In this document: positions 6,163 to 24,677 of the stretch, one piece after another
Layout of the letters: every line of letters starts with the position of its first letter
Numbering within the stretch: the first letter of the stretch is position 1
From: an uncultured bacterium
GTDB taxonomy: Bacteria > Patescibacteriota > Patescibacteriia > CAIQCM01
Assembly (NCBI GenBank): GCA_963708045.1
Contig: OY970181.1
Location: 579,740 to 643,739 of the forward strand
DNA length: 64,000 nucleotides
Direction of reading: 5' to 3'
The notes under the pieces: model-generated
The model's database searches: none
Told to the model about the DNA's origin: nothing
What the model saw: only the letters and a program-made list of their open reading frames with translations
Position numbers and translations under genes: made by a program

Positions 6163-7221
6163 ATGACCAACAAGGAAATAAAAAATAAACTCTCCGCTCT
6201 TGCCGCCCTAAAGGCGACAGGGGAGCCGAACGCGCTCTGGGTAACCGAGACGCGCGCTTTGCTTATGGAAAAAATTTCCTCGTCCAAGGCGGCTCCAGTA
6301 ACGGCGGCACAAGAAATCATCAAACTGCCGCGCGTTGGATTTTTTCCAAAACTAATGTTTGCAATGCGTCCGCTTATGGTTGTTGTTTTGGTTTTTGGTT
6401 TTGGTGCTTTTGGATATTTTGGAAGCATTGGCGCGATCGCTTCGTCGCTTCCAGGAAACAAGCTTTATGGATTTAAAACAATGGCCGAACGTGCTGAGCT
6501 GACTTTCGCGGCGTCCGATGATGCGCGCGCACTTTTGCATGCCGACTTTGCCTCACGCCGCGCTTCCGAAGTAGCGGCTTTGGCCGAAGCCGGTTCTGGT
6601 GCATCAGAAAAAAATGTTGCTGCGGCAATGGCCAATCTTACTCATGAAATGAAAAATGTAAGTGAAACAATGAAGGCGGTTACAACGGATTACGGCGCTG
6701 GTGCGGTCGCAATTGCTAAGGCTGTTGATCGTAAGGCCGCCGAAGTACGGACGATTATTGGCAAGACAAAGTCAATGCTTTCTTTGGCTTCAAAAGATCA
6801 GGTTCAGTCGGTGGAAGATATGGCTGACGATCTTTCGCTTCAAGCCGTGGCCGTGCTTGCCGCCGCACCTGCTGACAAAAATGACGACGTTAAAAATCGC
6901 GTTCAGGAAAATATAAACAGCGTTCAGAAAAAATTAGAAATCGCGACGCCAGAAGGTGCCGAAGAACTTAAGGATGCCAAGGCGGCCAAAGCCGCGCTTA
7001 CCGCGGCGCAAAAAGCCGCTGATAGCGCGGACTATATTGGTGCAGTAACCAAGGTTCAGGAAGCGGTTTTGCTAGCGACGCCCGACAAGGCGACAGTGGT
7101 TGACACAACAACCGTAAACGTAAATGCCAACACGCCAAAAGTTGAAACGAATGTTAATGCAAACACCAACACCAACACAAATACTAATCAGCCTGCCAAA
7201 ATTAAAGCCATTGATTTGTAA
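6163..7221 (+). CDS. DUF5667-like membrane protein, putative anti-sigma factor partner of the upstream ECF sigma
   Basis: It sits immediately downstream of the ECF sigma. The N-terminal cytoplasmic segment (MTNKEIKNKLSALAALKA...) is followed by a single TM helix (LMVVVLVFGFGAFGYFGSIGAI) and an Ala-rich helical periplasmic domain. The tail is low-complexity NVNANTNTNTNTN. This architecture matches DUF5667 proteins paired with sigma factors. Confidence 0.55.
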   Translation: MTNKEIKNKLSALAALKATGEPNALWVTETRALLMEKISSSKAAPVTAAQEIIKLPRVGFFPKLMFAMRPLMVVVLVFGFGAFGYFGSIGAIASSLPGNKLYGFKTMAERAELTFAASDDARALLHADFASRRASEVAALAEAGSGASEKNVAAAMANLTHEMKNVSETMKAVTTDYGAGAVAIAKAVDRKAAEVRTIIGKTKSMLSLASKDQVQSVEDMADDLSLQAVAVLAAAPADKNDDVKNRVQENINSVQKKLEIATPEGAEELKDAKAAKAALTAAQKAADSADYIGAVTKVQEAVLLATPDKATVVDTTTVNVNANTPKVETNVNANTNTNTNTNQPAKIKAIDL

Positions 7222-7553: not shown

Positions 7554-10500
7554 ATGACAGATGCATTAAAACTGTCGTACGGTGTAATGAAGCGCTCCTT
7601 CACGGTTGCCGTGGTGATTGCGACCATTCTTTGGTCCGTTGCCGCGACTTTTGCCGTTGCCCCTCGCGCCGCTCATGCGGCGACCTCGGGTGACCTCGTG
7701 AAGGGCTCGCTCTCGGCTGTCTACTATGTAGGCTCCGACAGCAAGCGCTACGTTTTCCCGAACGACAAAGTGTACTTTACTTGGTACACCGATTTCTCCA
7801 CGGTTAAGAAAATTTCCGACACTGACTTGGCTGCCCTTACAATCGGCGGCAACGTTACTTACAAGCCAGGTGTAAAAATGGTCAAAATCCAGTCTGATCC
7901 TAAGGTTTACGCCGTCGGTCACGGTGGCGTTCTCCGCCCGATCGCTTCGGAAGCCGCCGCCTCCGCCCTCTACGGCTCCACCTGGAACAAAAAGATTGAC
8001 GATATCTCCGACGCCTTCTTTGTGAACTACACTGTTGGTTCGCAAATTTCGTCCGCTTCGGACTTTGTTATCGCCACTGAACAAGCCAACTCCACCTCAA
8101 TCAATACCGACAAGGGTCTTTCCGGCGCTGGCGCGCTTAACATCTCGCTCGCCTCGGACAACCCAGCTGGTTCAACACTTACCTGCAATGCTTCTGGTGT
8201 TAACTTCCTAAAAGTTAATCTCTCGGGCACGGGTACAGTTACTGGCCTCACCTTCCACCGCATTGGTGCTGGTGTTGCCGCTGACTTTAGCAATGTCTAC
8301 CTTTACGATGGAGACACTCGCTTGACCGTTGGCCGCTCGGTGACTTCTTCCGACAACTCGGTTACGTTCTCTAACTTGAACGTTGCCGTTTCCGGTTCAA
8401 AAGAACTCACTTTGGTTGCTGACCTTGCCGCCCTCACCGCCTCCACCGCAACCCCCCCCTCCGCTTGTGTTGCTCTTGCTGGCGACTCCAACGCTTTTGC
8501 GATCAATGCCGCGACCGATGTTGTTACCAACACGACCGTCGGCGGTACCTTCCCAATTGCGGGCGGTTACTTCTCAATCGCTGCTTCTAAGAGCGGTACG
8601 CTTGCCGTTACTCCGGGTTCTGCTCCGTCCAACCCAAAGGTTGGTCAGCAGGCTGCTGAACTTGCCAGCTTTAAGGTTCAGGCTGGTTCATCCGAAGACG
8701 TGATTCTTCGCCGCATCATTGTGACCAACGCGGGTTCTGCCCAGTTGGCCAACCTTGCTAACCTAAAGATTACGGATGCCGGTACAATCATCGCGCAAAA
8801 CCCGATTATTTCGGGAACGACCGCGACCTTTGTGCTTGCTGTCCCATACACTTTGGGCAAAGGCATTCAACGCACGCTCTCGCTCGTTGGCGACGTCCTC
8901 GCGGCTAACCGCGCTGGCGTTGACACGATCAAGTTCTACATTGACCAGACCTACGACGTCTACGCCACTGGTTCCACTTACGGAATGGGCGTGAACGTGA
9001 CCAACACCTTCACTACGGGCAACTCGCTCAGTATTGATGGCGGTCAGATCACTTATGCGTTTAATGGTCCGACAACCGGCAATATCTCGGTTGGCGCTAA
9101 CGATGCTAATCTCCTCAAGTTCGCGATTACTTCGCAGAACAATATTGAAGTGAAAAGCACGACCGTTCGTCTCACTTTTAGTGCTGACGTTTCGGCCGAT
9201 ATCGCTAATGTCACTGATATTAAAATCAAGAACGCCGACACCGGCGTTGTTGTCGCTGGTCCGTTTGACCTTTCGTCCTGGACTGGTTACACCGATGCTA
9301 CTTTCGTAACCGTAGACGCCACGCCGTCACAATGGTATGCCAAGACGTTCACCGATCGCTACGACGTTTCGTCGGGCAAAACGGTTAACTATGTTGTCTC
9401 GGCTGACATTTTGACCACTGGCACGGGTCTCGCCGCCAAATCCGTTACGGCGACCCTCGCCGCTCGCGTTGGCACCAACATCCGCAATATGGATTCCAAC
9501 CTGGATGTTGCCACAACCGATATCGTCCCGGCCTCTGCCCTCGCTGGCAATCCGCAGACGGTTAGCGCTTCTGGTTTGACCGTTGGTCTTGCGAGCTCGC
9601 CTTCAACAGCGACCGTAACCAAGGGTTCTACCGTTAACGCGGTGGGCATCAACTTTACCGCCGGTTCTGCGTCGGACGTTAAAGTTTCTCAAGTTAAGCT
9701 CTATGCTTACATCAACCTTATTAATGGTGATGAAGTCTTGGGCGTTTCGGATGTTGACAGCACAAGCGCGACTCACTATTCCGCTGACTTGGTTCAATCC
9801 GTTTCCATCTGGGACGGTACGACCCAGCTTGGCACCACGCAGTCGCCTTCGGCTGGTCTTCTGACCTTCTCTAACCTTGCGTGGACTATTCCCGCCGGCA
9901 CCACCAAGACGCTTGTTGCCAAGGTAACTTCCTCCAACAACGCGCCTTATGGAGCTCAAACCAACCACATTGTTATTGACTTAGTTGGTACGGGCGATGA
10001 CAACACCACGTCAGACATCGCCGCGACTGACAAGGACACCAACACTGTCTCGGCGACTTCTACAGCTTGGTCTTCTACACAAAGCCACTTGAACACCACG
10101 GCCGCCAATGACACTGCTTGGGGTACCAACGGCGCTCCAGCTGTTTATGACGACATTGTTGCTTCGGGTTCGCTTACTATGAGCCTTGATGGCGACACAC
10201 CAGTTACTTCCATTGTTACGGCCAACACTAACGACAACTCGGTCACCCGCGTTAAGTTTAACTCGGTGAACGAAGCGTTCTTGGTTACCCGTTTGACTGT
10301 GGAAAACGTTGGTTCTATCGCTTCCAGCCGCTCCATTACTTCCGTCCGCGTCTATGACAAAGATGGAACCTTGGTCTGCTCGGGCGCGCTTGATTCCGCG
10401 AACCGCTTGCGTTGTGCAAACGACGCCGGTCTCTTCACGGTAAATGGTAACCACACGGTTACCATCAAGACCAACCTTGCTCAGGAAGGCTCTGGTACAA

Positions 10501-11621
10501 CCGGCGCCAATTCCGGCGATAAGCCGAAAATGGCCGTCGTTGTTCCACAAGCCGATGATGCCGCTGATGTTTACACCGACGACATTAAGGTCGTTGGCGT
10601 TTCCTCGGGCACGGCTTTGGTTGACACAGACGTTGGCGGCGGTTCTTTGACCGTCTCCGACAACTTGCTTGCAACCAAGATCACCGTCGCCACCACCGAT
10701 ATTTCTGGTGGATCATTCGTAGTCGGTGATACTGTTACTCAGGGTAGCGCTACTGGCCGGATCGTATCGGTCACGGTAGTTTCCACCAACACTGTAATCA
10801 CTGTTGTTGACACTGCCGGCGCCGCGTTCACCGCGAGCGGTACTGATCTTGTTAGCACCTCTTCACCTGTTGCGACGGCCGCCACTGTTGGCGCCGTTGA
10901 CACCACTGTTGTGCTTGTCGGCGCTCAGGGCAATAGCTCGGTTATTCGTAAGACTCAACCGACCGTTGCGACTGTTGCTACATCAACAAATCTTATCAAC
11001 GGCGAACAGACTGTTTACCAATTCTCGGTAACATCCTCTTCCAACGCCGATGTTGCGATTCACCAGTTCAACCTCAATATGTCCCGCTACAGCGTAGCTG
11101 TTAATTCGTACCGTGTCTTTGAAAACGGTGCGCCAATTGACGCTTCGCTTTATCGCGTCTGCTCCGGTACTTCTACCGCCGCCCCTGTCTTTGTGGCCGG
11201 CGTTATGACTACTTGTTCAACAGAAGTGAGCGGAAGCAATATTGATTTGACGACCGTTGCTGGTATCGCCACGGGTGATACAACTAAGATTATCTCGGTT
11301 GTCTTTGGCACTGAACGTACGATTGCCGCCGGTACCACCAAGACCTATGCCATCAAGGCTACGGTTTCTGGAGCTATCTCGGGCGATTCATTGAGCCACG
11401 TTATGTCGGATGATGCGACGGAAACCAGCATTTCGGGCGCCAATACCGGCAATCTTGTGAACGTTGTTGCTGCCGCTGCTCCGAACTTCGTTTGGTCCGA
11501 CACCTCGGCTGATTCCCACAACACTGGGACGGCTGCCACTTTTGCCTCCTCTTCAACCGACTGGACCAATGGTTACTTGGTTAAAACCTTGCCAACCTCG
11601 TCTCAAACGCTTTCTCTCTAA
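7554..11621 (+). CDS. Giant secreted surface protein (1355 aa) with an N-terminal conserved ~110-aa module and long T/S/V/A-rich beta-repeat region
   Basis: Signal peptide MKRSFTVAVVIATILWSVAATFAVAPRAAHA. Residues ~46-160 (GSLSAVYYVGSDSKRYVFPNDKVYFTWYTDF...MVKIQSDPKVYAV...DDISDAFFVNYTVGSQI) are homologous to the C-termini of the 12470, 19934 and 21242 proteins. The remainder is low-complexity Thr/Ser/Val-rich. An internal poly-C(8) tract lies at 8452-8459. Confidence 0.8.
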   Translation: MTDALKLSYGVMKRSFTVAVVIATILWSVAATFAVAPRAAHAATSGDLVKGSLSAVYYVGSDSKRYVFPNDKVYFTWYTDFSTVKKISDTDLAALTIGGNVTYKPGVKMVKIQSDPKVYAVGHGGVLRPIASEAAASALYGSTWNKKIDDISDAFFVNYTVGSQISSASDFVIATEQANSTSINTDKGLSGAGALNISLASDNPAGSTLTCNASGVNFLKVNLSGTGTVTGLTFHRIGAGVAADFSNVYLYDGDTRLTVGRSVTSSDNSVTFSNLNVAVSGSKELTLVADLAALTASTATPPSACVALAGDSNAFAINAATDVVTNTTVGGTFPIAGGYFSIAASKSGTLAVTPGSAPSNPKVGQQAAELASFKVQAGSSEDVILRRIIVTNAGSAQLANLANLKITDAGTIIAQNPIISGTTATFVLAVPYTLGKGIQRTLSLVGDVLAANRAGVDTIKFYIDQTYDVYATGSTYGMGVNVTNTFTTGNSLSIDGGQITYAFNGPTTGNISVGANDANLLKFAITSQNNIEVKSTTVRLTFSADVSADIANVTDIKIKNADTGVVVAGPFDLSSWTGYTDATFVTVDATPSQWYAKTFTDRYDVSSGKTVNYVVSADILTTGTGLAAKSVTATLAARVGTNIRNMDSNLDVATTDIVPASALAGNPQTVSASGLTVGLASSPSTATVTKGSTVNAVGINFTAGSASDVKVSQVKLYAYINLINGDEVLGVSDVDSTSATHYSADLVQSVSIWDGTTQLGTTQSPSAGLLTFSNLAWTIPAGTTKTLVAKVTSSNNAPYGAQTNHIVIDLVGTGDDNTTSDIAATDKDTNTVSATSTAWSSTQSHLNTTAANDTAWGTNGAPAVYDDIVASGSLTMSLDGDTPVTSIVTANTNDNSVTRVKFNSVNEAFLVTRLTVENVGSIASSRSITSVRVYDKDGTLVCSGALDSANRLRCANDAGLFTVNGNHTVTIKTNLAQEGSGTTGANSGDKPKMAVVVPQADDAADVYTDDIKVVGVSSGTALVDTDVGGGSLTVSDNLLATKITVATTDISGGSFVVGDTVTQGSATGRIVSVTVVSTNTVITVVDTAGAAFTASGTDLVSTSSPVATAATVGAVDTTVVLVGAQGNSSVIRKTQPTVATVATSTNLINGEQTVYQFSVTSSSNADVAIHQFNLNMSRYSVAVNSYRVFENGAPIDASLYRVCSGTSTAAPVFVAGVMTTCSTEVSGSNIDLTTVAGIATGDTTKIISVVFGTERTIAAGTTKTYAIKATVSGAISGDSLSHVMSDDATETSISGANTGNLVNVVAAAAPNFVWSDTSADSHNTGTAATFASSSTDWTNGYLVKTLPTSSQTLSL

Positions 11622-11718
11622 TCATTTGATTAGCTAAGTTAAAAGCGTAATTAACTTTTGACTTAAGAAAGCGAAGTTTGACGCGATGACCTAAAAAGCA
11701 TCGTTACCAAACGGCAAA

Positions 11719-11748
11719 CCCCTCCGATGATACATCGGAGGGGTTTTG
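11719..11748 (+). terminator. Rho-independent terminator
   Basis: cccctccgatg-atac-atcggagggg followed by tttt. Confidence 0.7.
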
Positions 11749-11753
11749 CGTTA

Positions 11754-11797
11754 TTTACACCCTCCCCCGAGTGCGGGGGAGGGGTTGGGGGAGAGGG
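11754..11797. repeat. GC-rich hairpin repeat (ccctcccccgagtgcgggggaggg family), left direct repeat flanking the DUF559 cassette
   Basis: ttacaccctcccccgagtgcgggggaggggttgggggagaggg. It is almost identical to 12262-12306. Related copies occur at 14953-14982 and, inverted and degenerate, at 12212-12250. Confidence 0.7.
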
Positions 11798-11808
11798 CAA
11801 CTCGTCTA

Positions 11809-12186
11809 ATGGATGTTATAATAATTTCTATGGCACCGATAATAAATACCAATAAATTATTGTCTCGTCGTCGTGATTTGCGCAAAAATCAAACAGAAGC
11901 TGAAAGATTATTTTGGGAAAAAGTAAGATGCGAAAGGTTTTTTGGTCTAAAGTTTAAACGTCAATACAGCGTCGGGTCGTATATTTTAGATTTTTATTGC
12001 CGTGAAAAAAATTTGGCGATTGAAATTGATGGTTCCCAACATATTAAAAATGCTGACTATGATAAAGAGCGAACTTTGTATTTAGAAAATTTTGGGCTTA
12101 CCGTTTTACGTTTTTGGAATAATGAAGTTATGAATAATATGGATGGAGTTTTGGAGGCGATACGGATTAAACTAGAAATTGAATAA
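11809..12186 (+). CDS. DUF559 / Vsr-like (very-short-patch-repair-type) endonuclease domain protein
   Basis: The RRDLRKNQTEAERLFWEKVR...YILDFYCREKNLAIEIDGSQH...LENFGLTVLRFWNNEV motif set is diagnostic of DUF559. The gene is AT-rich relative to its neighbours. The ORF-track start (11746) would include the REP hairpin, so ATG 11809 is chosen, with an alternative at 11830. Confidence 0.8.
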   Translation: MDVIIISMAPIINTNKLLSRRRDLRKNQTEAERLFWEKVRCERFFGLKFKRQYSVGSYILDFYCREKNLAIEIDGSQHIKNADYDKERTLYLENFGLTVLRFWNNEVMNNMDGVLEAIRIKLEIE

Positions 12187-12261
12187 AGTAAACATACTCC
12201 GCCACGCAACCCTCACCCGGCCTTCGGCCACCCTCTCCCACACTTGGGCGAGGGTTTTACG

Positions 12262-12306
12262 TTTACACCCTCCCCCGAGTGCGGGGGAGGGGCTGGGGGA
12301 GAGGGT
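12262..12306. repeat. GC-rich hairpin repeat, right direct repeat flanking the DUF559 cassette
   Basis: tttacaccctcccccgagtgcgggggaggggctgggggagaggg. It is a near-identical direct copy of 11754-11797. Confidence 0.7.
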
Positions 12307-12469
12307 GTCGTTGGTGGTGTATACCCAAAATAATTGTGGATAACTAGAAAAATATTTAATTCTTAAAAAGGAGTATAATAATAATCGGACAAGTTGAAGT
12401 CCGTAAAAATTTATATTTTATCCGCGGGATTAACCGCGATCAATTTTAAATCTTAAATAAAAAAGATTT

Positions 12470-14893
12470 ATGAATGTTCTTCTAAATAATACGGCAAAGG
12501 TAACCTCGCGGGTTGCTTTTTCTGTAATGGCCATTGCGTTGGCTGTTTTATTTCTCTCCGGCATTAAGCCGGCATTAGCCCTATCTGGCGAAGGCGCGGC
12601 GACCATTGCCGACACTACCGGAACTCCGGGTGTTGAACCGGCAGCCGCGGGCGTTACTGCCGAACGTGCGGTATCCGACGTATTCACAATCGTCTTAACG
12701 GTCGGTGCAAGTGGAATTGCCATAGATGCCGCTAATCCGATTTTTACCATCCCGACCGGTTTTACCGCTCCACAGGCGGCGCCGGAAGCTGCTCTTTTAG
12801 ACGTTGATGTTGATGGTGAGTGGTTTGTTGTCGGTGCTGGCGACTCTTGTTCGGTCAATCTGGCGGGGACCACAAACGCTACTGGACAGATGCTTTCGCT
12901 TGATGTTGACGGGGCGTGTGTTACGACCAATACCATCACCGTTACTTACAAAGGGACATCGTCCACTGTAATGACTGCTGCGCCGGTCGTAATAATTACC
13001 GATGATACATCTGGCCCACCTGATCCAGTGGCAATCACTGCACCGCCAACAATCACGGTAAGCGACACGGTTGCTCCAACTGCAACCGATGCCCCAACCG
13101 CCGCCGCTGGTGCGGTTATTAACGATGCCGAAGAAGCTGCCGGTGTTGCCGTTGTTGTCCCACTTGGTACAAGTGGTGCGATTGCGGGCGATACGCTGGC
13201 TTTGTATCTTGGTGGCTCGGCTTTCCCAACACCTTTAACCCACGTTCTTACGGGTGGTGAAATTACGGCAACTGAATATACATTTACCGTTGCATCTGGT
13301 CAACTTGGCGCTGACGGCGCCGGAAAGAGTATCACCGCGTTGGTAACTGATGCCGCCGGTAATCCGGGTACAGCGAGCGCCGCCCTTGTCCTTTCTTTGG
13401 ACACGGTTGCGCCGGTTATTTCCGCGGTTACTCCTTTAACTGGAACATCTAACAACGCCGCACGAACGGTTGGTTATACTTTTGGCGAAGCGGCAGTTGC
13501 CGATGCTGGCACAAAAATATCCTTTATCCGCACTGGTGGCACGGCTGACACGCAAGGAACACATATCTATCTCTTAACTGGCGCTGAATTAACCGCGGCG
13601 GCACATACGATCGCGATTTCGGTTTTAAACGCCGATGCCGTTTCTTTTGCCTTAACTAACGCTTTGGTTGATGGTGCAATTTATACAACTACGATTGACG
13701 CCAAAGATGCCGCCGGTAACGCTTCCACAACAATAACAACATTGCTTGTTACCTATGACACTACGCCGCCAGCAACACCGGTTTCGAGTATTGCTGCGGG
13801 TACTTATCCAAGGTCTCAAAACGTTGCTCTGACCTCAACCGGTTCCAGCTCTATTCGTTACACGGTAAACGGCGATGCGATTGCTGATTGTTCTGCCGGC
13901 ACTCTTTTCGCCGATTACGTCGTTGTTTCTTCATCGCAAACGGTTAAAGCCCGCGGTTGCGATAGCGCCGGAAATATTTCCGTCGCAACAATGTCCACTG
14001 CCTATGTCATTACTAATGGTACAAGCGGCGGTAGTGGTGGATCAACCTATGTTCCGCCTCCAGTAGTTAACGTAATCTCGCCAAACGGCGGCGCGAGTTA
14101 CGCGCCAGGTTCCGTAGTCAGTGTTTCTTGGACTTCTGGCGATGGTGCTTTCGCTAAATATAATGTTTCTTACTCAGACAACAACGGCGCCACCTGGACG
14201 GTGATCGCGAGCAATGTAATCTCCACTAACGCGAGCTGGATAATGCCAAATACCGCCACAACTACGGCCAAGGTTAAAGTTGATGGTTACAATTCAACCG
14301 GTTCGCTTCTTGCTTCTGATTCTTCCAATAGCGTCTTTACAATTACCGGCACTGGCGCTCCGGCCGAAACTCCGGTTGTGCCGGAAACTCCAGCAACTCC
14401 CGCGCCAGTCGTTGACCCGACAGTTAGCGGCTCGTATAACGCCGCCGATGCCAAAAACAACAACCCGACAATCAAGGACGATAAGGGTATTGTCGCCGTT
14501 CCTGCCGGGACAACGGTTTATTGCACCGCCGGAACGCTCATTAAAGGCTCGCTCTCATCGGTTTACTACTGCGGCGCCGATGGCAAGCGTTATGTCTTCG
14601 TGAACGACAAGGCATACTTTACCTGGTACAGCGACTTTACCACGGTTAAAACCATTTCCGACGCCGATATGGCGATGATCCCGCTTGGTGGCAACATCAC
14701 TTATCGCCCAGGCACGAGAATGGTCAAAATTCAATCGGACCCCAAAGTTTATGCCATCTCACGTGGTGGAACTTTGCGCTGGGTTAGCTCCGAAGCAATT
14801 GCCGTGCAACTCTTTGGCGCCGACTGGGCCAAGATGATTGATGATGTTTCTGACGCTTTCTTTGTGAACTACAAAATTGGCGCTCAGATCTAA
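12470..14893 (+). CDS. Secreted surface protein (807 aa) with bacterial Ig-like domains and a C-terminal conserved ~110-aa module
   Basis: Signal peptide plus TM-like segment VAFSVMAIALAVLFLSG. Big-like motifs include TALVTDAAGNPGTASAALVLSLDTVAPVISAVTP. The C-terminus GSLSSVYYCGADGKRYVFVNDKAYFTWYSDFTTVKTISD...MVKIQSDPKVYAI...DDVSDAFFVNYKIGAQI is about 60% identical to the N-terminal module of the 7554 protein. Confidence 0.8.
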   Translation: MNVLLNNTAKVTSRVAFSVMAIALAVLFLSGIKPALALSGEGAATIADTTGTPGVEPAAAGVTAERAVSDVFTIVLTVGASGIAIDAANPIFTIPTGFTAPQAAPEAALLDVDVDGEWFVVGAGDSCSVNLAGTTNATGQMLSLDVDGACVTTNTITVTYKGTSSTVMTAAPVVIITDDTSGPPDPVAITAPPTITVSDTVAPTATDAPTAAAGAVINDAEEAAGVAVVVPLGTSGAIAGDTLALYLGGSAFPTPLTHVLTGGEITATEYTFTVASGQLGADGAGKSITALVTDAAGNPGTASAALVLSLDTVAPVISAVTPLTGTSNNAARTVGYTFGEAAVADAGTKISFIRTGGTADTQGTHIYLLTGAELTAAAHTIAISVLNADAVSFALTNALVDGAIYTTTIDAKDAAGNASTTITTLLVTYDTTPPATPVSSIAAGTYPRSQNVALTSTGSSSIRYTVNGDAIADCSAGTLFADYVVVSSSQTVKARGCDSAGNISVATMSTAYVITNGTSGGSGGSTYVPPPVVNVISPNGGASYAPGSVVSVSWTSGDGAFAKYNVSYSDNNGATWTVIASNVISTNASWIMPNTATTTAKVKVDGYNSTGSLLASDSSNSVFTITGTGAPAETPVVPETPATPAPVVDPTVSGSYNAADAKNNNPTIKDDKGIVAVPAGTTVYCTAGTLIKGSLSSVYYCGADGKRYVFVNDKAYFTWYSDFTTVKTISDADMAMIPLGGNITYRPGTRMVKIQSDPKVYAISRGGTLRWVSSEAIAVQLFGADWAKMIDDVSDAFFVNYKIGAQI

Positions 14894-14916
14894 GTAGAAG
14901 ACAGAAAATAAAAAAT

Positions 14917-14950
14917 TAAAAACACCTCCGATTAATTTCGGGGGTGTTTT
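14917..14950 (+). terminator. Rho-independent terminator
   Basis: acacctccg-attaatt-tcgggggtgt followed by tttgttttt. Confidence 0.65.
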
Positions 14951-14981
14951 GTTTTTACCCTCGCCCGAGTGCGGGAGAGGG

Positions 14982-15063
14982 GAGTTCGTTTCGCCGTAAA
15001 TAACTTTAACGTAATAATACAGAACTCTCCCCACCCTCCCTTTTACCAAAGGGAGGACTAAGA
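14982..15063. repeat. 83-nt structured intergenic repeat, copy 1
   Basis: gagttcgtttcgccgtaaataactttaacgtaataatacagaactctccccaccctcccttttaccaaagggaggactaaga. It contains the ggagttc/gaactcc stem and the ctccctttt-acc-aaagggag hairpin. It is identical to 15197-15279. Confidence 0.7.
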
Positions 15064-15196
15064 CTTTTTGCGCTTTGTCACTTTCTTTGTAAAAAAGATT
15101 TAATTTGAGAATTTTGTATTTGCCCCTTCTTTGCATAATAGCAGGGTTTTATCTGTAACCAGTCTTAGTCCACTCTTTGCAAAAGAGGGGGTAGGG

Positions 15197-15279
15197 GGAG
15201 TTCGTTTCGCCGTAAATAACTTTAACGTAATAATACAGAACTCTCCCCACCCTCCCTTTTACCAAAGGGAGGACTAAGA
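15197..15279. repeat. 83-nt structured intergenic repeat, copy 2
   Basis: Direct repeat of 14982-15063, separated by ~130 nt of unrelated sequence. Confidence 0.7.
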
Positions 15280-15414
15280 TTGTTGTTGAATATTTGTTAA
15301 TAACAATTGTGTTCTAAAAGTGGTATAATAAAAAACCGGACAAAAAGTCCGTGAAATTAAATTTAAAACAGGGGATAAATCCCTGAATGATTTTAAATCT
15401 TAAGAAAAAGATTT

Positions 15415-18400
15415 ATGAACGCAGTTTCAAAATTAAAATTTTTTAGCGCTAACCACAAGGGGTTGGTTTTTGCTTTTTGTTTTGTTGTGGCCGTGCTTGC
15501 CTTTGTTGCCCTGCCGACGCATAAGGCAATGGCGGCGAACGGCGACATCGTTGTCAATGTTAAAGAAGAGCTGGGAAGCAATCTTGCTGGCGCGACAGTT
15601 GAAATTAATTGTAGCGGCGGCAGTTTTGTGGCCAACGTCGCCCCGACTGACGCTTCAGGTAATGTGACTTTTTTGGTGGCTGACCTTGGTGATTCTGGCG
15701 GCGCGACTCTTTATCACACGGCCGATTGCGACACTAATGCCGAGAGTATCACTTATCGTGTGTCCAAAGATGGATACGTTACTCAAACTACCGGTGGTGC
15801 TGACACATATTTAACGGGAGCCGAAACCGACAAAAATATCACCGGTGTTCAGTTCGCCTACAAACTCACAGCTGTCACAACCGAAGGACCGGGGACAAAT
15901 ATCACAGCGACACTTTCTTCGCTGGCGGTTGGCGCTTCTGGTGCAACCGACGCCTGTACTTTAAATGGCGGCGCTTGGTATTGTCCGGTAACACTCGCCC
16001 ATAGCGTGGGGCCGCTCATTGGCGTGCCAACGCAAGATGGTTATGTACAAGCCAATTACAATTTAGTTACTGGCACAACGCGTAGCGCTAACGCCGACGC
16101 GCAAGTTTCGGACACAATCAGCACGGTTCGTTTTTCCTATAAAATAACATCGGCGACGAGCGAAATCGGCACTAACATCACGGCAATTTTGACAACACTG
16201 AGAGTTGGCGACGATACGGCCACGAACGCTTGCACTTTCTCGGTTGACGCTTGGTATTGTCCAGTCATTCTCGCCAATAGCAACGGTACGCTTAAGGCCG
16301 ACCCAGTTAAAGAAGGTTATGTTCAAGCTGACCACAATTTGGTTCTGGGCACAACGCGCGTCGCGAGCTCTGACGCTCAAATAACTGATTCTTTCACTGG
16401 TGTTCAATATGCATACAAAATAACCTCTGCAACTTCTGAAGCTTTAGCAGTCAATCTTATTTCTACATTAAGCGCGCTTGCCGTTGGTGACGCGACCGCG
16501 ACCAACGCTTGTGAAACCTCGGGTGGCGCTTGGTACTGTCCGGTTGTTCTCGCAAATAGCGACGGCACGCTTCTTGGAGTTCCTACTCAAGACGGCTATG
16601 TGCAAACAAATTACAATTTGGTAATCGGTACAACTCGTGTTGCTAATAATGCATTGCAGATATCGGACACGATCGTTAATGTTCAATACGCTTACAAAAT
16701 TACTTCCGTTACAACCGAAGGCCCAGGCACCGAGCTCCGAGCCACCTTGTCTTCGCTCACGGTTGGCGATGATACCGCCAAAACCGCCTGTGCATTAAAC
16801 GGCACGACTTGGTATTGCCCGGTTATCCTTGCGAACAGCAATGGCACACTTGTCGGCGTGCCAACGCAAGACGGGTACGTATCGGGTGATGATAATTTGG
16901 TAATTGGTACAACGCGCGTTCTTAATACGGCGGCGCAAGTTTCGGACACAATTAGCACCGTTCGGTTTGCTTATAAAATAACCGCGGTTACGGCTGAGGG
17001 TCCGGGAACAAATATTACTGCGACACTGGTTTCGCTTGCAGTTGGCGACGATACAGCTACGACACTTTGTACTTTCAATGTTGCGACTTGGTATTGTCCG
17101 GTTATTCTTGCAAATAGCGATGGTACATTAATTAGTATCCCGATCAAAGACGGTTATGTGCAGGCTAATTATAATTTGGTTCTAGGCACGACGCGTCTTA
17201 CGGCCGCTGCGGCGCAAGTTTCAGATACAGTAACTGGTGTTAGATTTTCTTATAAAATCACTTCGGCGACGAGCGAAATCGGCACCAATATTACCGCAAT
17301 TCTTACGACGCTCGCGGTTGGCGACGATACGACAACAAACGCCTGTGCATTCTCGGTTGATGCTTGGTATTGTCCAGTCGTACTCGCGAACAGCAATGGC
17401 ACGCTAAAAGCCGATCCGGTTAAAGAAGGCTATGTTCAAGCCGACCATAATTTAGTTCTAGGCACAACGCGTCTTGCTAATCTAGACGCTCAAATTGTTG
17501 ATTCGTTTACTGGTGTTCAGTTTGCTTACAAAATCACTTCCGTAACTGCCGAAGGTCCTGGCACCAACCTTACCGCCACCCTCGCTGGTTTAGTTGTTGG
17601 TGATGTTACGGGAACCGATACCTGTATTTTAAACGGCGGCGCTTGGTACTGCCCAGTTGTTCTCGCAAATAGCGACGGCACACTTCTCGGCGTGCCAACG
17701 CAAGATGGTTATGTGGCGGCAAATAATAATTTAGTGATTGGTACGACTCGTGGCACAAATGCTGCCGCCCAAGTTTCTGACACAATTACTGGTGTTGATT
17801 TCGCTTACAAAATCACCGCCGTTACCACCGAAGGGCCTGGTACCAACCTTACAGCGACACTTTCTTCGCTCGTGGTTGGTGACGATACTGGTACAACGGC
17901 CTGTGCTCTTAACGGTGGTGCTTGGTATTGTCCGGTTTTGCTTGCAAATAGCGACGGCACGCTTATCGGCGTGCCAACGCAAGATGGTTACGTCGCGGCT
18001 AATAACAATTTAGTGATTGGCACGACGCGTATTACTAACGCTGCGGCGCAAGTTTCTGACACGATTAGCACGGTTAAATTCTCATACAAACTTACAGCCA
18101 TTACCACCGAAGGGCCTGGTACCAACCTTACAGCGACACTTTCTTCGCTCGTGGTTGGTGACGTGACGGGAACCAACGCTTGTATTTTAAATGGTGGCGC
18201 TTGGTATTGTCCGGTTTTGCTCGCGAATAGCGACGGTACGCTTATCGGCAATTTGGTTGAAGACGGTTATGTGCAGGCAAACTATAATTTGGTTAATGGC
18301 ACAACGCGCGCCGCGGCCGGCGATCCACAGCGCACTGAAACTATTAACACGGTTCAATTCGCTTATAAAATTACAGGAGCGACGACAGAAATTAGCACCG

Positions 18401-19929
18401 ACATTACCGCAATTTTAACAACGCTCGCGGTTGGCGATGATTCCGCAACCAATGCTTGTACCTTTTCGGTTGATGCTTGGTACTGTCCAGTTATTCTCGC
18501 GAACAGTAATGGCACGCTAAAAGCTGATCCAGTTAAAGAAGGTTATGTTCGGGCTGACCATAATTTGGTTCTAGGGACGACGCGCCTAACAAATACTGCT
18601 GCTCAAATTTCCGACACATTTACCGGTGTTCAATTTGCTTACAAAATCACTTCCGTAACCGCCGAAGCTATTGGCACTAACCTAACAAGCACATTAACGG
18701 GACTGCTTGTCGGAGATGCGACCGCAACCAATACCTGTGTTCTTAATACCGGCGCTTGGTACTGTCCAGTTGTTCTCGCAAATAGCGATGGCACACTTCT
18801 TGGTGTACCAACGCAGGATGGCTATGTTCAAGCAAATCATAATTTAGTTACTGGCACGACGCGCGTTGCAAATACTGATGCTCAGCGTTCAGATACAATC
18901 ACTAACGTTTTATTTGCTCTTAAAGTTACAATCCAGCGCGAAGGCGACAACGCGGCTGTGACCGGTTCTACGGTTACCGCTGACGGTCCGACGCTTTACG
19001 ACGTGACTTGCGCCGAAAATGGAACAACCGGCATTCATTATTGCGTTATTCCCGTGGCACAAACAGGAACGATTACGCGAATTGTTAATCCTTCGTTTAT
19101 TACAAAAACACTAAGCTATACCGACCGCACAACGCAAATCGGCGGCCAAGGTACGATGACCGCGGTTTTGAGCACTTCGGGCGATATCACTCCGCCGACG
19201 ATTACCGGCCAGACTCCGGCCGATGGCGCGACCGGCGTTTCAATTATTGTTTCGCCAACCATAACCTTTAACGAAGCAATGGATGCGGCGACGTTAAACG
19301 GTGGCACGATTCAAATTCGCAAATATTCCGACGATACTGCGGTTTCCGCTAGTCTTCTCTATAATCCTTCAACCTTCGTCGTGACGCTAACCCCGGTTGC
19401 AAGTCTTGTCTACAACACGCAATATTATCTCTATGTTGTTGGTGCAAAAGATGCCGCGGGCAATTCGGTAAGCACCGACTACGCAGCTGGCACAAAGAGC
19501 AGTCACGAATTTACAACGGTTGCCGAAGCCAACGGTTCGCTCGCGGTCACGGGCATTGATCGTATTAGCACCTATGCCGTTACTGGTGGCGATTATGCCA
19601 ATGGTTGGAAATGGACTTTCCACGTCACCGTTCCGACCACCGAAACATCATTTAAAATGAAATTCACTGACCTTGTGAGCGGAACTCATTCTATTGCGGC
19701 GGCAGCGAATATGCGTTTCTTTTCTTCGCAATCATCTAACGCGTACGATGAAAGCACGGCAATTAGCATTACTGTTGCCGAAGCTTATAGCTCAACAATG
19801 ACACTCAACGCTGATCTTAGTGCTGGCACAGCCGGTCGGCAAATAGACGTTACGATTGAGGCGCGCGTACCAACAGGAACGGCGGCTGGGTCATACTCAA
19901 CCAGTTACGGGATTCAAACGACGATTTAA
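15415..19929 (+). CDS. Giant secreted tandem-repeat surface protein (1504 aa): ~11 x 93-94-aa Cys-containing repeats plus a C-terminal SbsA-type Ig-like domain
   Basis: Signal peptide VFAFCFVVAVLAFVALPTHKAMA. The repeat consensus is YKIT..T.E..GTN.TA.L..L.VGD.T.T.AC.....AWYCPV.LANS.GTL...P..(D/E)GYV....NLV.GTTR......Q.SDT...V.FA. The C-terminus TPPTITGQTPADGATGVSIIVSPTITFNEAMD...YYLYVVGAKDAAGN is typical of an S-layer Ig-like domain. Confidence 0.8.
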   Translation: MNAVSKLKFFSANHKGLVFAFCFVVAVLAFVALPTHKAMAANGDIVVNVKEELGSNLAGATVEINCSGGSFVANVAPTDASGNVTFLVADLGDSGGATLYHTADCDTNAESITYRVSKDGYVTQTTGGADTYLTGAETDKNITGVQFAYKLTAVTTEGPGTNITATLSSLAVGASGATDACTLNGGAWYCPVTLAHSVGPLIGVPTQDGYVQANYNLVTGTTRSANADAQVSDTISTVRFSYKITSATSEIGTNITAILTTLRVGDDTATNACTFSVDAWYCPVILANSNGTLKADPVKEGYVQADHNLVLGTTRVASSDAQITDSFTGVQYAYKITSATSEALAVNLISTLSALAVGDATATNACETSGGAWYCPVVLANSDGTLLGVPTQDGYVQTNYNLVIGTTRVANNALQISDTIVNVQYAYKITSVTTEGPGTELRATLSSLTVGDDTAKTACALNGTTWYCPVILANSNGTLVGVPTQDGYVSGDDNLVIGTTRVLNTAAQVSDTISTVRFAYKITAVTAEGPGTNITATLVSLAVGDDTATTLCTFNVATWYCPVILANSDGTLISIPIKDGYVQANYNLVLGTTRLTAAAAQVSDTVTGVRFSYKITSATSEIGTNITAILTTLAVGDDTTTNACAFSVDAWYCPVVLANSNGTLKADPVKEGYVQADHNLVLGTTRLANLDAQIVDSFTGVQFAYKITSVTAEGPGTNLTATLAGLVVGDVTGTDTCILNGGAWYCPVVLANSDGTLLGVPTQDGYVAANNNLVIGTTRGTNAAAQVSDTITGVDFAYKITAVTTEGPGTNLTATLSSLVVGDDTGTTACALNGGAWYCPVLLANSDGTLIGVPTQDGYVAANNNLVIGTTRITNAAAQVSDTISTVKFSYKLTAITTEGPGTNLTATLSSLVVGDVTGTNACILNGGAWYCPVLLANSDGTLIGNLVEDGYVQANYNLVNGTTRAAAGDPQRTETINTVQFAYKITGATTEISTDITAILTTLAVGDDSATNACTFSVDAWYCPVILANSNGTLKADPVKEGYVRADHNLVLGTTRLTNTAAQISDTFTGVQFAYKITSVTAEAIGTNLTSTLTGLLVGDATATNTCVLNTGAWYCPVVLANSDGTLLGVPTQDGYVQANHNLVTGTTRVANTDAQRSDTITNVLFALKVTIQREGDNAAVTGSTVTADGPTLYDVTCAENGTTGIHYCVIPVAQTGTITRIVNPSFITKTLSYTDRTTQIGGQGTMTAVLSTSGDITPPTITGQTPADGATGVSIIVSPTITFNEAMDAATLNGGTIQIRKYSDDTAVSASLLYNPSTFVVTLTPVASLVYNTQYYLYVVGAKDAAGNSVSTDYAAGTKSSHEFTTVAEANGSLAVTGIDRISTYAVTGGDYANGWKWTFHVTVPTTETSFKMKFTDLVSGTHSIAAAANMRFFSSQSSNAYDESTAISITVAEAYSSTMTLNADLSAGTAGRQIDVTIEARVPTGTAAGSYSTSYGIQTTI
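15853..18925 (+). repeat. Intragenic tandem repeat array, unit 279-282 bp, with a 4-unit (~1116 bp) higher-order period
   Basis: Unit starts fall at about 15853, 16135, 16417, 16693, 16972, 17251, 17530, 17809, 18088, 18367 and 18646. Units 2, 6 and 10 (TSATSEIGTNITAILTTL...FSVDAWYCPVILANSNGTLKADPVKEGYVQADHNLVLGTTR) are near-identical. Units 3, 7 and 11 are likewise similar. DNA stretches 17825-17885 and 18100-18160 are nearly identical. Confidence 0.8.
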
Positions 19930-19933
19930 ATAA

Positions 19934-21079
19934 TTGCTTAAGCGCAAAAAAATGAACAAATATATAAAAATTTTGTTCGGTTTCGCAGTGGTGTTTCTTG
20001 GTCTTGTTGCGGGTGGTGTGGTTTTGGCCTCAGAAACAACTGGCGATTTAAATACAGGATTAGATACGGGCGTTGATGGAATTGTCGTGGCACCGCCGAG
20101 CGCCGCGCCCATTGCTGGCACTTATAGTTCCGCGCTCGCGATCACGCTTACGGCAACCGGTGCGACCAGTATGCGCTATTCAATCAATGGAACTGATCCG
20201 ACTTGTTCCACGGGGATAGTTTATGTTGAAGAAATTGCTGTTGCATCATCAAGAATAATTAAAGCAATTTCTTGTTATCCAGGCGGTATTGCTTCGTCGG
20301 TTGCCACGTTTATTTATACGATCTCGTCCTCGTCGGGCGGTGGCGGGGGTGGGGGAGGCGGGGGAAATTTTATACCCGCACCAACGCCGGTTACTGGAAA
20401 ATTTAGCCGCACCGAAGCTAACGCCAAACTTCCGCCAAATTTTCCGGTTGATTCGCTTGTAAAATTAGCTGATGACAAAAATCCTAAAACCGATGTTGAT
20501 AGTGCTGTTTATTACATCGGGCTTGATGCCAAGCGTCATTCGTTCATTAATAATCATATTTTCTCTAGCTGGTATAGTAATTTTGATGATATAAAAATCA
20601 TAGACGCAACCACACTTGCTTCTATTACGCTTGGTACGCCAATTCTTTCGCGTCCAGGCACGTGGTGGGTAAAAATCGCTTCCGACCCAAAGACATATTA
20701 TGTTGAACCGGGGAGCTACAAGCTTCGTTGGATTAAAGACGAAGCCACAGCGCTTGCTTTGGGTGGGTCGGATTGGAACAAAAATATTCTTGACGTTGGC
20801 GTAAGTTACTTTGCTAACTATTCAAGCGGTGATCCGATTGATATGACATATTTGGCCAAACTTTGGCCAGCTGGCGCTTTGCTAAAACTCGCAAGCGATA
20901 CCACGATTTGGTACGCGACTGGTACAGAACGCCGGCGGTTTGCGTCAAAAAGCGCTTTTTCCGCGAATGGTTTTCAAGATCGCTTTATTGAATTAAATAA
21001 TAAACCAGGCTGGCAATATCTTCCGACAGGCGCGGACATTACCGGTTTTGAAGACGCGCTCTTTAGCCTTCAACACTAA
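19934..21079 (+). CDS. Secreted protein (381 aa) with an Fn3-associated-like domain, a poly-Gly linker and the conserved ~110-aa module
   Basis: Signal/TM FGFAVVFLGLVAGGVVLA. The Fn3_assoc-like segment is APIAGTYSSALAITLTATGATSMRYSINGTDPTCS. A G12 linker follows. The shared module is DSAVYYIGLDAKRHSFINNHIFSSWYSNFDDIKIID...WVKIASDPKTYYV...ILDVGVSYFANY, plus a partial second copy. Confidence 0.75.
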   Translation: MLKRKKMNKYIKILFGFAVVFLGLVAGGVVLASETTGDLNTGLDTGVDGIVVAPPSAAPIAGTYSSALAITLTATGATSMRYSINGTDPTCSTGIVYVEEIAVASSRIIKAISCYPGGIASSVATFIYTISSSSGGGGGGGGGGNFIPAPTPVTGKFSRTEANAKLPPNFPVDSLVKLADDKNPKTDVDSAVYYIGLDAKRHSFINNHIFSSWYSNFDDIKIIDATTLASITLGTPILSRPGTWWVKIASDPKTYYVEPGSYKLRWIKDEATALALGGSDWNKNILDVGVSYFANYSSGDPIDMTYLAKLWPAGALLKLASDTTIWYATGTERRRFASKSAFSANGFQDRFIELNNKPGWQYLPTGADITGFEDALFSLQH

Positions 21080-21120
21080 CGTAGCGTATAGGGGTTAGGG
21101 TATAGAGTATAGAAAAAAGA

Positions 21121-21151
21121 AAAAACCTCCGATTTTTATCGGAGGTTTTTT
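21121..21151 (+). terminator. Rho-independent terminator embedded in REP-like inverted repeat
   Basis: aaaaacctccg-atttttat-cggaggtttttt. It is flanked by the inverted arms tataggggttagggtatag / ctagcccctaaaccctataccctag. Confidence 0.7.
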
Positions 21152-21241
21152 ATTCTAGCCCCTAAACCCTATACCCTAGACGCTAATAGTAAGTTGAAAT
21201 AATCTTCTTTACGGAGTATTCTTATTAAACAATGCTATCCT

Positions 21242-23512
21242 ATGAAAAATAAAATCCTCCCCATTTTTTTATTTGTTTTCACGGCTTTTTTGTTTGGTCA
21301 TCAAGCCAAGGCCGCAACCAAAGAATGGCTTGCTAATGCGCCGGGCGATCTGGCTTCGGTTGCGACAAATTGGGCAAGCGGCGTTTTGCCGTCTTCGGGC
21401 GATGATCTTGTTTTTCCTTCAGGCGCAACAGTTGTATGGGACATTAGCGGCGTGATGCCGAGAAATGTCACGACCCAAGCCAATGTCTCGCTCAAAGCTC
21501 CTTTGGCTTTGATGGGCGACTTTAAAGTAAGCGGAGGGAAGTTACTTTCAAACAGTAATGCTATTTCGGTTGGCGGAGCGGTTATTCTTTCGGGTGGCGC
21601 GGCGGATTTTGGCGCCTCGTCAATTAACGTGAGTGGCGATTGGAAATTTTCTGGCGGCACTGCCGTCCTTTCATCGGCCACGGTAAGTTTTACCGGAAGC
21701 GGGGATAAATTAATTTATTCATCGGGAAATAGTTTTGGTAAATTATCAATCAATGCGCCGGGCGTGACCGTAAAATTAGCAGATGATTTTGAAAGCAATG
21801 ATAAAATAACCGTTTCTGATGGAATTTTTTCGTTAGCCGGAAAAACAATGACTTTGACGGGTGGTCTTGATCTTATAGGTGGAACAGTGACGCTCTCTGG
21901 AGGAAAAATAAATTTTGTCGGCACCAAAGGGAAACCGTTTTCAATTTCCGGCGGAAGTTTTAACGTTGATGCTGGCGGTACGGTTGTTTATGCGCCGACC
22001 GCTGGAAGTATCACCGTCGCGGCGGCCGATTATTATGATTTAGAACTTTCTGGAAATGCGGTTTTTTCTCTTTCGGGAGGAACAACAGTAAACGGAAAAT
22101 TAATAATTGGCGTGGGCGCAACGCTTTCGCCTAGCTCATTTACGATTTCGGCGAAAGGACAGGTAGAAAACAGTGGAAAGATTTTGGGGGATAAGGGAAT
22201 AGACACGGCCGTCGGCTCGATAAAATTTATTAACGACAATTTCGCGGAAATTTTTTCGTTTACGAAAAGCTCAGGCGTTGTTCGGGTAAGTATTGAAAAT
22301 ATCGGTAAAAATTTTATTGGCAGTGTGGCAGAAACGCTTGCTGGGCTAACTTTAACGACAATGTCAGGTGACAAAGAGATAATTAACGCCGTGGAAACCA
22401 GCAATTCAACCGGCGTTTTTGTAACGCCGGCGATTGTTGTTCACGAGGCGGCAGTGGAACAAGGAAACGGTCAGCTCGAGGTATCGCAGAATGATATAAT
22501 TTTTGCGACTTACGTTGACCCACAAAACTCGGCGCGTAAAAAAAGCGCCGAAATTACCGTGAGCGCGACGACCTCTTCAAATACCGGCATTCCGCAAATT
22601 GTCGCTAAGCCAATTCTTACCAACTGGAGCTCGGTAACGTCGTCCTCAGGAACAACTTATTCGGCACATATTATCTGGGAAACTGATATTGTGAGTTCTT
22701 CGGCAATAACGGTTTCTGGTGGCAGTTTTAGTTTGCCGGTTTCTGCTGGCAGCCTAACACCAACTTTAACCCACGATGTTTTGGTTTCCGGTTTGTCGCG
22801 CGGCTACGTGTATTCTTATAAAGTAAGTTCAATGTCGGCTGATGGCAAAAGCGTTACGAGCGATTCGGCAAAGTTTACGGTTATTGTTGCTGGCGATCGG
22901 ATTAAAACGGCTAATTCGTCGGCGGTGTATTGGTACCTAAACGGCAAGCGAAACGTATTTTCTAATTTTTTCGTTTATGATTCTTGGTTTCCCGATTTTA
23001 AAAATGTTGTAACGATTCCAGCCGAACAAATGTCCGATATTCTAATTGGTCGGGGTATTCCCGTGCGTGCTGGCACATATCTTGTAAAAATTCAGTCCGA
23101 CCCGCGGGTTTATGCGGTTTTGCCGTTTGGAAAATTAAGCTGGGTGCAAACCGAAACGCAAGCGATCGCTCTTTACGGAGAAAATTGGTCAAAGCGGGTA
23201 ATTGATATGGATGTGGCTTTCTTTGGTTCCTATTCATATGCCGATCCGATGGTAGACGGAAAAATGCCCGACGGGTTTGTTTATTCCGCCGGTGGGGAAA
23301 ACGGAATTTATTTGGAAAATAGTTTGCATCGCTTAAACGACGCCGCGCTTCCGGTAAATGGTATAGATAAACGTTTTATTTCCCCGGTTGTTTTAAGTAT
23401 GATTACGAACGCGACAAATGGCGGTATTTATTATGGTTACGCACCTGCAGCAAATACAGTTTTTAAAGACGGAAATTCCGAAGTTGTCGCGCCAGCGCGC
23501 ATAGAAAAATAA
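21242..23512 (+). CDS. Secreted surface protein (756 aa) with Gly/Ser-rich beta-helix-like region, an Fn3-like domain and the conserved ~110-aa module near the C-terminus
   Basis: Signal peptide ILPIFLFVFTAFLFGHQAKA. The Fn3/purple-acid-phosphatase-N-like segment is TSSSGTTYSAHIIWETDIVSSSAITVSG. The shared module is NSSAVYWYLNGKRNVFSNFFVYDSWFPDFKNVVTIP...LVKIQSDPRVYAV...IDMDVAFFGSYSYADP. Confidence 0.75.
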   Translation: MKNKILPIFLFVFTAFLFGHQAKAATKEWLANAPGDLASVATNWASGVLPSSGDDLVFPSGATVVWDISGVMPRNVTTQANVSLKAPLALMGDFKVSGGKLLSNSNAISVGGAVILSGGAADFGASSINVSGDWKFSGGTAVLSSATVSFTGSGDKLIYSSGNSFGKLSINAPGVTVKLADDFESNDKITVSDGIFSLAGKTMTLTGGLDLIGGTVTLSGGKINFVGTKGKPFSISGGSFNVDAGGTVVYAPTAGSITVAAADYYDLELSGNAVFSLSGGTTVNGKLIIGVGATLSPSSFTISAKGQVENSGKILGDKGIDTAVGSIKFINDNFAEIFSFTKSSGVVRVSIENIGKNFIGSVAETLAGLTLTTMSGDKEIINAVETSNSTGVFVTPAIVVHEAAVEQGNGQLEVSQNDIIFATYVDPQNSARKKSAEITVSATTSSNTGIPQIVAKPILTNWSSVTSSSGTTYSAHIIWETDIVSSSAITVSGGSFSLPVSAGSLTPTLTHDVLVSGLSRGYVYSYKVSSMSADGKSVTSDSAKFTVIVAGDRIKTANSSAVYWYLNGKRNVFSNFFVYDSWFPDFKNVVTIPAEQMSDILIGRGIPVRAGTYLVKIQSDPRVYAVLPFGKLSWVQTETQAIALYGENWSKRVIDMDVAFFGSYSYADPMVDGKMPDGFVYSAGGENGIYLENSLHRLNDAALPVNGIDKRFISPVVLSMITNATNGGIYYGYAPAANTVFKDGNSEVVAPARIEK

Positions 23513-23513
23513 T

Positions 23514-24677
23514 GTGGAAGAAGAAATAAAAACTAAAAAATTTCCTCGGCGTTCTATTTTTGTCTTAGCGGTTGCGTTGCTTATTTTGGGCGCGGCGGTT
23601 TATTGCTATCCGCGCGCCGTTGCCGATCGCGCCGTTCCACCTTTGGTTGTAGAAAAAGCGCCGCGCACTAATCATCTCGCTGTCCCGTCCGAAGTCAGAG
23701 CAATTTATATCACGGCGGAAATGGCAGGAAATGAAAAAAGATTTTCGGAAGTTGTTAATTTGGGCAAAAGCCGCGGGATTAATTCTTTGGTGGTTGATCT
23801 AAAAAATGAAAACGGTTCGCTCGCATTTTTGCCCAAAAACGAAACGTTAAAAGCCGAGATTGGGAAAAATGTTCCGCTCGGCGACCTTGGTGTTTTTGCC
23901 GATAAAGTTCATGGCCTCGGTTTGTACCTTATCGCGCGAATGCCGGTTTTTGAAGATCCGAATTATGCAATTGGACATCCGGCCTTTGCCTTAAAACGTT
24001 CCGGCGGCAAACTATGGACTGACGCGAATGGTTTGGCTTGGCTTGACCCGGCTTCGGAAGACGTTTGGAAATATAATTCCGCCGTGGCGACGGAAGCGTA
24101 TACGCTTGGTTTTGATGAAATTCAGTTTGACTATATCCGTTTTGCGACCGACGGCGTAACCTCGGCGATCGTTTTTCCGGTCTATGACAAAAAGAAAGAA
24201 ACATACCGACAAGTTATTTCTCGTTTCTTTTCATTTCTTGATTCCGAACTTCGCGCCAAAGGAATTCCAATCTCGGCCGATGTTTTTGGTTTTGTTACTT
24301 GGCACCAGTCGGACTTGGGCATTGGCCAGTGGTACGACGACGCCATAAGAACGATGGATTATGTTTCGCCGATGGTTTATCCGTCGCATTATCCATCGGG
24401 CGTGTTACAATTTAAAAATCCGGCCGCTCACCCGTACGAAATAATCGCTGACTCTTTAAAAAAGGGGAACGAAGTTATTTCTTTGGCCGCGAAAGATCCG
24501 GATCTTAAACTTGCGACGCAACGTCCGTGGCTGCAAGCCTTTGATATGGGCGCCAAATACACGCCCGAGTTGATTCTGGCCGAAGTAAAAGCCAGCCGCG
24601 ACAATAACGCCTCCGGTTTTATGTTCTGGAACGCCAGAAACGATTACTCTAATCTGCCGGTACTTACTAATCTCTAA
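23514..24677 (+). CDS. Putative glycoside hydrolase-like protein (DUF4015/GHL TIM-barrel type), membrane-anchored
   Basis: 387 aa. An N-terminal TM helix (IFVLAVALLILGAAVYCY) is followed by motifs RAIYITAEMAG...GINSLVVDLKNENG...FDEIQFDYIRF, which resemble the putative glycosyl-hydrolase DUF4015 family. Confidence 0.45.
   Translation: MEEEIKTKKFPRRSIFVLAVALLILGAAVYCYPRAVADRAVPPLVVEKAPRTNHLAVPSEVRAIYITAEMAGNEKRFSEVVNLGKSRGINSLVVDLKNENGSLAFLPKNETLKAEIGKNVPLGDLGVFADKVHGLGLYLIARMPVFEDPNYAIGHPAFALKRSGGKLWTDANGLAWLDPASEDVWKYNSAVATEAYTLGFDEIQFDYIRFATDGVTSAIVFPVYDKKKETYRQVISRFFSFLDSELRAKGIPISADVFGFVTWHQSDLGIGQWYDDAIRTMDYVSPMVYPSHYPSGVLQFKNPAAHPYEIIADSLKKGNEVISLAAKDPDLKLATQRPWLQAFDMGAKYTPELILAEVKASRDNNASGFMFWNARNDYSNLPVLTNL

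Follow-up and report, generated by a model that had tools for sequence, protein, structure and literature searches.

The SLH and CWB2 anchors of Firmicutes S-layer and surface proteins contain three repeats each. S-layer proteins combine a conserved anchor with a fast-evolving exposed domain (bioRxiv 10.1101/2025.04.02.646754), and a passage in PMC8871954 that cites Luef 2015 reports, from cryo-TEM, that CPR cells are monoderm and have an S-layer. Another fold is found in EccB1 of mycobacterial type VII secretion, whose repeats form a four-stranded sheet plus two helices and resemble PlyCB; peptidoglycan binding by EccB is a hypothesis of the authors of that structure (PMC4769845). PlyCB itself, from the streptococcal phage C1 lysin PlyC, binds wall polysaccharide through the polyrhamnose backbone (bioRxiv 10.1101/2021.03.19.436156). 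The locus that we compare with these systems lies in a 64,000-nucleotide stretch of DNA (the window) from an uncultured bacterium of the Patescibacteriota.

A cluster of genes for secreted proteins

The cluster consists of five co-directional open reading frames on the + strand, P1 to P5, all of which were present as first described. Each protein has a hydrophobic signal-like segment at its N-terminus, called by eye and by hydropathy rather than with a dedicated signal-peptide predictor. The first-pass annotation called all five proteins giant, which P4, with 381 residues, is not.

2478-4664, - strand: secreted GHL15 glycoside-hydrolase-like protein (Pfam GHL15, E 3e-25; FG-GAP repeats; signal-like N-terminus)
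5535-6062, + strand: ECF-type sigma factor (Pfam), directly upstream of P1 together with the DUF5667 gene
6163-7221, + strand: DUF5667 protein (Pfam), directly upstream of P1
7554-11621, + strand: P1, secreted, 1355 aa, 138 kDa, pI 4.75, T/A/S/V-rich, N-terminal module
11716-11746, + strand: strong terminator-like hairpin 3' of P1, 14-bp stem
12470-14893, + strand: P2, secreted, 807 aa, pI 4.29, module at the extreme C-terminus
14919-14950: similar hairpin 3' of P2
15415-19929, + strand: P3, secreted, 1504 aa, without the module
19934-21079, + strand: P4, secreted, 381 aa; the ATG at 19952 is the more likely start
21120-21151: similar hairpin 3' of P4, reading on both strands
21242-23512, + strand: P5, secreted, 756 aa, N-terminal region followed by the module and a tail of its own
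23514-24677: DUF4015, a GH-like gene right behind P5
26754-27599: Peptidase_C39-like gene, 3 kb downstream
50891-52663: cohesin-domain protein

In P1, the module begins 3 residues past the likely signal cleavage site, between AHA and A, and is followed by a passenger of 1185 residues for which Pfam and a PDB sequence search returned no match. The P2 passenger gives weak Fn3/Ig-like signals in Pfam. P3 contains 11 tandem repeats of ~93 residues with a WYCPV motif plus one Big_5 Ig-like domain; the P4 frame opens 4 nt past the P3 stop codon. P4 is ordered as CHB_HEX_C_1/Fn3_assoc, module and a third unit, and the G/S-rich N-terminal region of P5 is possibly beta-helical. The P5 stop adjoins the start of DUF4015 at 23514.

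Synteny was counted within the 3-kb flanks of 80 related module loci. The ECF sigma factor and the DUF5667 protein each recur at 17 of the 80, in conserved synteny with P1-like genes, and homologs of the P1 passenger are found at 23. The GHL15 gene, which is divergent from the sigma/P1 unit, is recurrently syntenic as well (15/80), whereas DUF4015 adjoins a module gene at only two loci. The distance from the cluster to the GT genes exceeds 20 kb. The earlier proposal that a ligand for the module is made by neighbouring GH-like and GT genes is thus weak, all the more as GH-like proteins would cut glycan and not build it. Of these genes, the upstream GHL15 gene alone recurs in synteny, along with the sigma factor and DUF5667 genes.

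A duplicated module absent from sequence-family catalogues

Four of the five proteins share the module, as first noted:

7689-8063, + strand: copy 1, P1 residues 46-170, two tandem ~60-residue units
14531-14890, + strand: copy 2, P2 residues 688-807
20453-20866, + strand: copy 3, P4 residues 174-311, with a 9-residue insertion before strand 2
22892-23278, + strand: copy 4, P5 residues 551-679, the most divergent of the four

Identity to the P1 copy is 67, 45 and 37% for the remaining three, and 29 columns of the four-copy alignment are invariant. When the whole window was scanned in six frames with an HMM of the four copies, exactly these four matched (E 1e-63 to 1e-65); no fifth copy was found in the window, the next-best match having an E value of 0.36. 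The alignment agrees with the consensus string of the first-pass annotation, but places the length at ~120-125 residues instead of ~110, or ~145 with the ordered extension seen in P1. The ‘partial second copy’ reported in P4 is not significant (E 0.024-0.038 against a single sequence) and is instead a separate, recurrent extension of ~70 residues. The similarity does not come from low-complexity composition: the module is aromatic-rich and close to neutral (13.9% FWY, median pI 6.6), compared to 6.7% FWY and an acidic median pI of 4.6 in the passengers.

Searches of Pfam, NCBIfam and PHROGs gave no match to the module regions, and LysM, SH3b, PG_binding, SPOR, GW, choline-binding and PKD domains were absent from their output. 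With Pfam, the five proteins showed no SLH (PF00395) or CWB2 (PF04122) at E<=0.1, and the isolated modules had no match at E<=10. A PDB sequence search with the module profile found nothing below E=2. Since no curated library matched, the module is not SLH, LysM, SH3b, CWB2 or PKD, in keeping with the first description of it as unrecognised. Judged from these searches, it is real and absent from sequence-family catalogues.

The module is an internal duplication, in that its halves align in register over 56 columns (hhalign E 3.5e-5). An AlphaFold2 model predicts the same order of secondary structure in both halves with high confidence (pLDDT 97.1), each ~60-residue unit being strand-strand-strand-helix-strand-helix. 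The predictions are of monomers only, either the module or the module plus extension without the passenger. The predicted fold is of the EccB-repeat/PlyCB-like type and resembles experimentally validated wall-binding domains of phage lysins. Structural alignments to EccB, PlyCB and lysin wall-binding domains show 4-13% identity, and no sequence-level link to these families was found with Pfam, PHROGs or the PDB profile search.

The boundary between module and passenger

Several features mark the edge of the module:

8064-8123, + strand: P1 post-module extension, residues 171-190, ordered, two short helices
8100-8120, + strand: P1 junction motif INTDKGL, residues 183-189, inside this extension
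14471-14491, + strand: P2 junction motif IKDDKGI, residues 668-674, followed after 13 residues by the C-terminal module
14522-14572, + strand: P2 cysteine pair, C685 (pre-module linker) and C701 (strand 2, VYYCG)
20846-21076, + strand: P4 tail or third unit (~70 aa), residues 305-381
23258-23509, + strand: P5 tail, residues 673-756, a second extension type

Motif statistics show that the INxDKGL junction motif is conserved and that it invariably lies between module and passenger. The P1 extension that holds it has a pLDDT of 97-98 in the model made without the passenger domain, and the INxDKGL helix is predicted to pack onto the module from that side. The cysteine pair, a feature of C-terminal copies, covaries across the family (both present in 64, both absent in 166, mixed in 16). 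In P2, C685 and C701 would form a disulfide; in C-terminal copies generally, such a bond probably fastens strand 2 to the linker that leads into the module.

Homologs of the P4 tail lie directly behind the module in other family proteins (phmmer E 2.7e-22 to 1e-5), and 8 of 10 proteins found with the module plus this tail cover the full query (100%). Tail and junction motif are mutually exclusive, with 18 proteins having the former, 91 the latter and none both. From this distribution, the third unit stands in for the junction motif in one subfamily. The P5 tail has a homolog at the matching position in another family protein, P0087 (E 1.2e-16), and is only weakly similar to that of P4 (blastp E 0.01). 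P4 and P5 each have such an alternative third unit.

A large family with diverse passengers

The module family comprises no fewer than 5,329 cluster representatives (50% identity) at E<=1e-3, of which 3,068 remain at E<=1e-30, with Patescibacteria or Ca. Uhrbacteria as the source wherever one is named. Among 149 module-bearing proteins, the module is just behind the signal-like segment in 108, C-terminal in 31 and at both ends in 6, an N:C ratio skewed by the search profile, in which columns for the signal peptide and the post-module region were included. P1 belongs to a conserved, acidic and T/S/A/V-rich family of ~1200 residues, and about 45 of the best 150 representatives are proteins of ~1100-1460 residues with an N-terminal module. 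The terminal modules stand beside highly varied extracellular domains: Big_7, Big_5, Big_1, fn3, GH10, trypsin, Peptidase_C25, GDSL lipase, ice-binding-like, LamG and beta-helix. In fusions to Peptidase_M23, a peptidoglycan hydrolase, the module is C-terminal; wall hydrolase domains were seen in only 3 of 120 fragments and in none of 96 representatives scanned. Module genes also cluster, with four in 16 kb here and two to three copies at 14 of the 80 related loci.

Narrow searches of viral contigs and of deposited phage genomes found no module copies, so that support of the kind ‘a phage lysin borrowed its host's anchor’ is missing. We suggest that Uhrbacteria-type Patescibacteria (CPR) have in this module a domain specific to their lineage, with a putative role in wall binding.

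Proposed attachment to the cell's own wall

We think it somewhat probable that the module anchors proteins non-covalently to the wall of the cell itself and that the P1 family is a candidate surface-layer protein. The wall-binding-like predicted fold and the wide distribution among CPR surface proteins suggest that the module attaches proteins to the wall of the cell that makes them. The first-pass annotation had also read it as an anchoring or docking module, and its terminal place, its position behind signal peptides, the many passengers, the several paralogs per locus and the lysin-like fold all agree with that part of the proposal. As a mechanism, module proteins would be exported by Sec; the module, N- or C-terminal in the mature protein, would then bind a glycan of the monoderm wall, with peptidoglycan or a wall-linked polysaccharide as candidate ligand; and the variable acidic passenger would thereby be kept on the cell surface. 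Two binding units per chain would lend some avidity. Four proteins of this window would be tethered in this way, among them P1, which is preceded by an ECF sigma factor gene and a DUF5667 gene of its own. The monoderm, S-layer-bearing CPR cells described above and an MreB gene encoded in the window fit this reading. If correct, this anchor would explain how these bacteria attach surface proteins, perhaps including a surface layer, to the wall.

Some observations count against self-anchoring. Many anchors for anionic wall polymers are basic, which the module is not; wall hydrolase fusions are rare; and the working form of PlyCB is octameric.

P1 has the bipartite composition of an S-layer protein, a conserved anchoring domain with a large, variable, acidic surface-forming domain. 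Between P1 orthologs, the module is 86% identical and the passenger 49% in one locus (L001), and the values are 74-75 versus 34-38% in five others (L002-L005, L007). Based on size, composition, conservation and synteny, the P1 family is the best candidate S-layer protein of these cells. The strong hairpin 3' of P1 and the cryo-TEM images of S-layers on CPR cells lend indirect support to such a role.

The glycan bound could instead be that of a host envelope, in which case the module would hold the epibiont to its host and gather its secreted hydrolases and adhesins at the host surface. CPR bacteria are epibionts, host-attached CPR cells are seen in cryo-TEM, and degradative enzymes (GH10, trypsin, Peptidase_C25, lipase, M23) occur among the passengers, as do Ig/invasin domains of the adhesin type. 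In addition, the closest validated structural relatives (PlyCB and the wall-binding domains of LysIME-EF1 and Lys170) recognise their target wall from outside. We nevertheless consider host adhesion unlikely. A host-recognition element is expected to vary, whereas the module stays ~50-75% identical across many species-level genomes with presumably different hosts while the passengers diverge fast. Several paralogs per locus carry a nearly identical module, and in the largest and most conserved family it is innermost, right behind the signal peptide, which is the usual place of a self-anchor. Quite unlikely is a variant in which the module, with its lysin-type fold, is the recognition device of Uhrbacteria-type epibionts and delivers dozens of different enzymes and adhesins to a conserved glycan of the host envelope, with INxDKGL as a regulated release or processing site. 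Were host recognition true, the module would provide a sequence handle on how a large CPR branch attaches to and exploits its hosts.

It is similarly doubtful that the module binds protein rather than glycan, joining surface proteins to one another, onto a scaffold in a cohesin-dockerin-like manner, or in rings as in the PlyCB octamer and the periplasmic EccB assembly. EccB repeats do build a protein assembly and PlyCB an octamer; P3, with its tandem repeats and no module, sits mid-cluster and is imaginable as a scaffold, and a cohesin-domain protein is encoded at 50891-52663. However, homologs of P3 occur at none of the 80 related loci, so the function of the module cannot depend on P3. No match to dockerin (a Ca-binding, duplicated EF-hand-like segment of cargo proteins) or cohesin was found in P1-P5, the P3 repeats included, or in 96 family members, and the M23 fusions point to the wall as target. 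Self-association of the module would be compatible with anchoring to the cell's own wall.

The module might also be a tag that directs secretion, sorting or maturation (compare T9SS C-terminal domains and PEP-CTERM), or a domain that helps its own chain to fold, with INxDKGL as the site of module removal. This would suit the terminal location, the short and sharply conserved motif right where module and passenger meet, and the Peptidase_C39-like gene 3 kb downstream. It is very unlikely, because known sorting signals keep to one terminus while the module occurs at either end, at both or internally, and in every case the protein has a normal signal-like segment at its N-terminus as well, because the motif is predicted to be ordered, helical and packed on the module instead of an exposed linker, and because 125 well-folded residues with a wall-binding-type fold exceed the needs of a tag.

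Comparison with known systems

Several known systems come close to the anchor proposed here. EccB repeats R1-R4 (PDB 3x3m, 4kk7, 5cyu, 7nps) are ~11% identical to the module, but the EccB core domain and transmembrane anchor are absent here, with no Pfam T7SS_ESX1_EccB match; EccB is a fixed part of a secretion machine, whereas the module is portable and fused to many passengers. PlyCB (PDB 4f87; 13% identity) is a single unit of ~70 residues that forms a non-covalent octamer, whereas the module has two fused units plus a junction helix and was modelled as a monomer. PlyCB is also a phage protein aimed at a foreign cell, while the module proteins are cellular and, as proposed, exported by Sec. 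The wall-binding domains of the enterococcal phage endolysins LysIME-EF1 (6ist) and Lys170 (7d55) are likewise among the closest systems. The best matches in the viral structure library are actinophage proteins, from Rhodococcus phage Weasels2 (A0A1I9SA71) and Streptomyces phage LukeCage (A0A345MGB2), at 13-23% identity and with no sequence-level relationship detected; the 115-residue Weasels2 protein aligns over 130 columns, more than one ~60-residue unit (E 1.7e-5, TMt 0.69).

In its proposed logic, the module is like SLH and CWB2, which are terminal, repeated, non-covalent wall anchors. As proposed here, one anchor is common to the S-layer protein and to many other secreted proteins per genome; the anchor is conserved while the exposed domains evolve fast, and the cargo is typically surface-displayed enzymes and Ig-rich proteins. 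The likeness does not extend to sequence, fold or repeat number: the CWB2 profile comprises three tandem repeats of ~90 residues and SLH typically three of ~55, whereas the module has two units of ~60.

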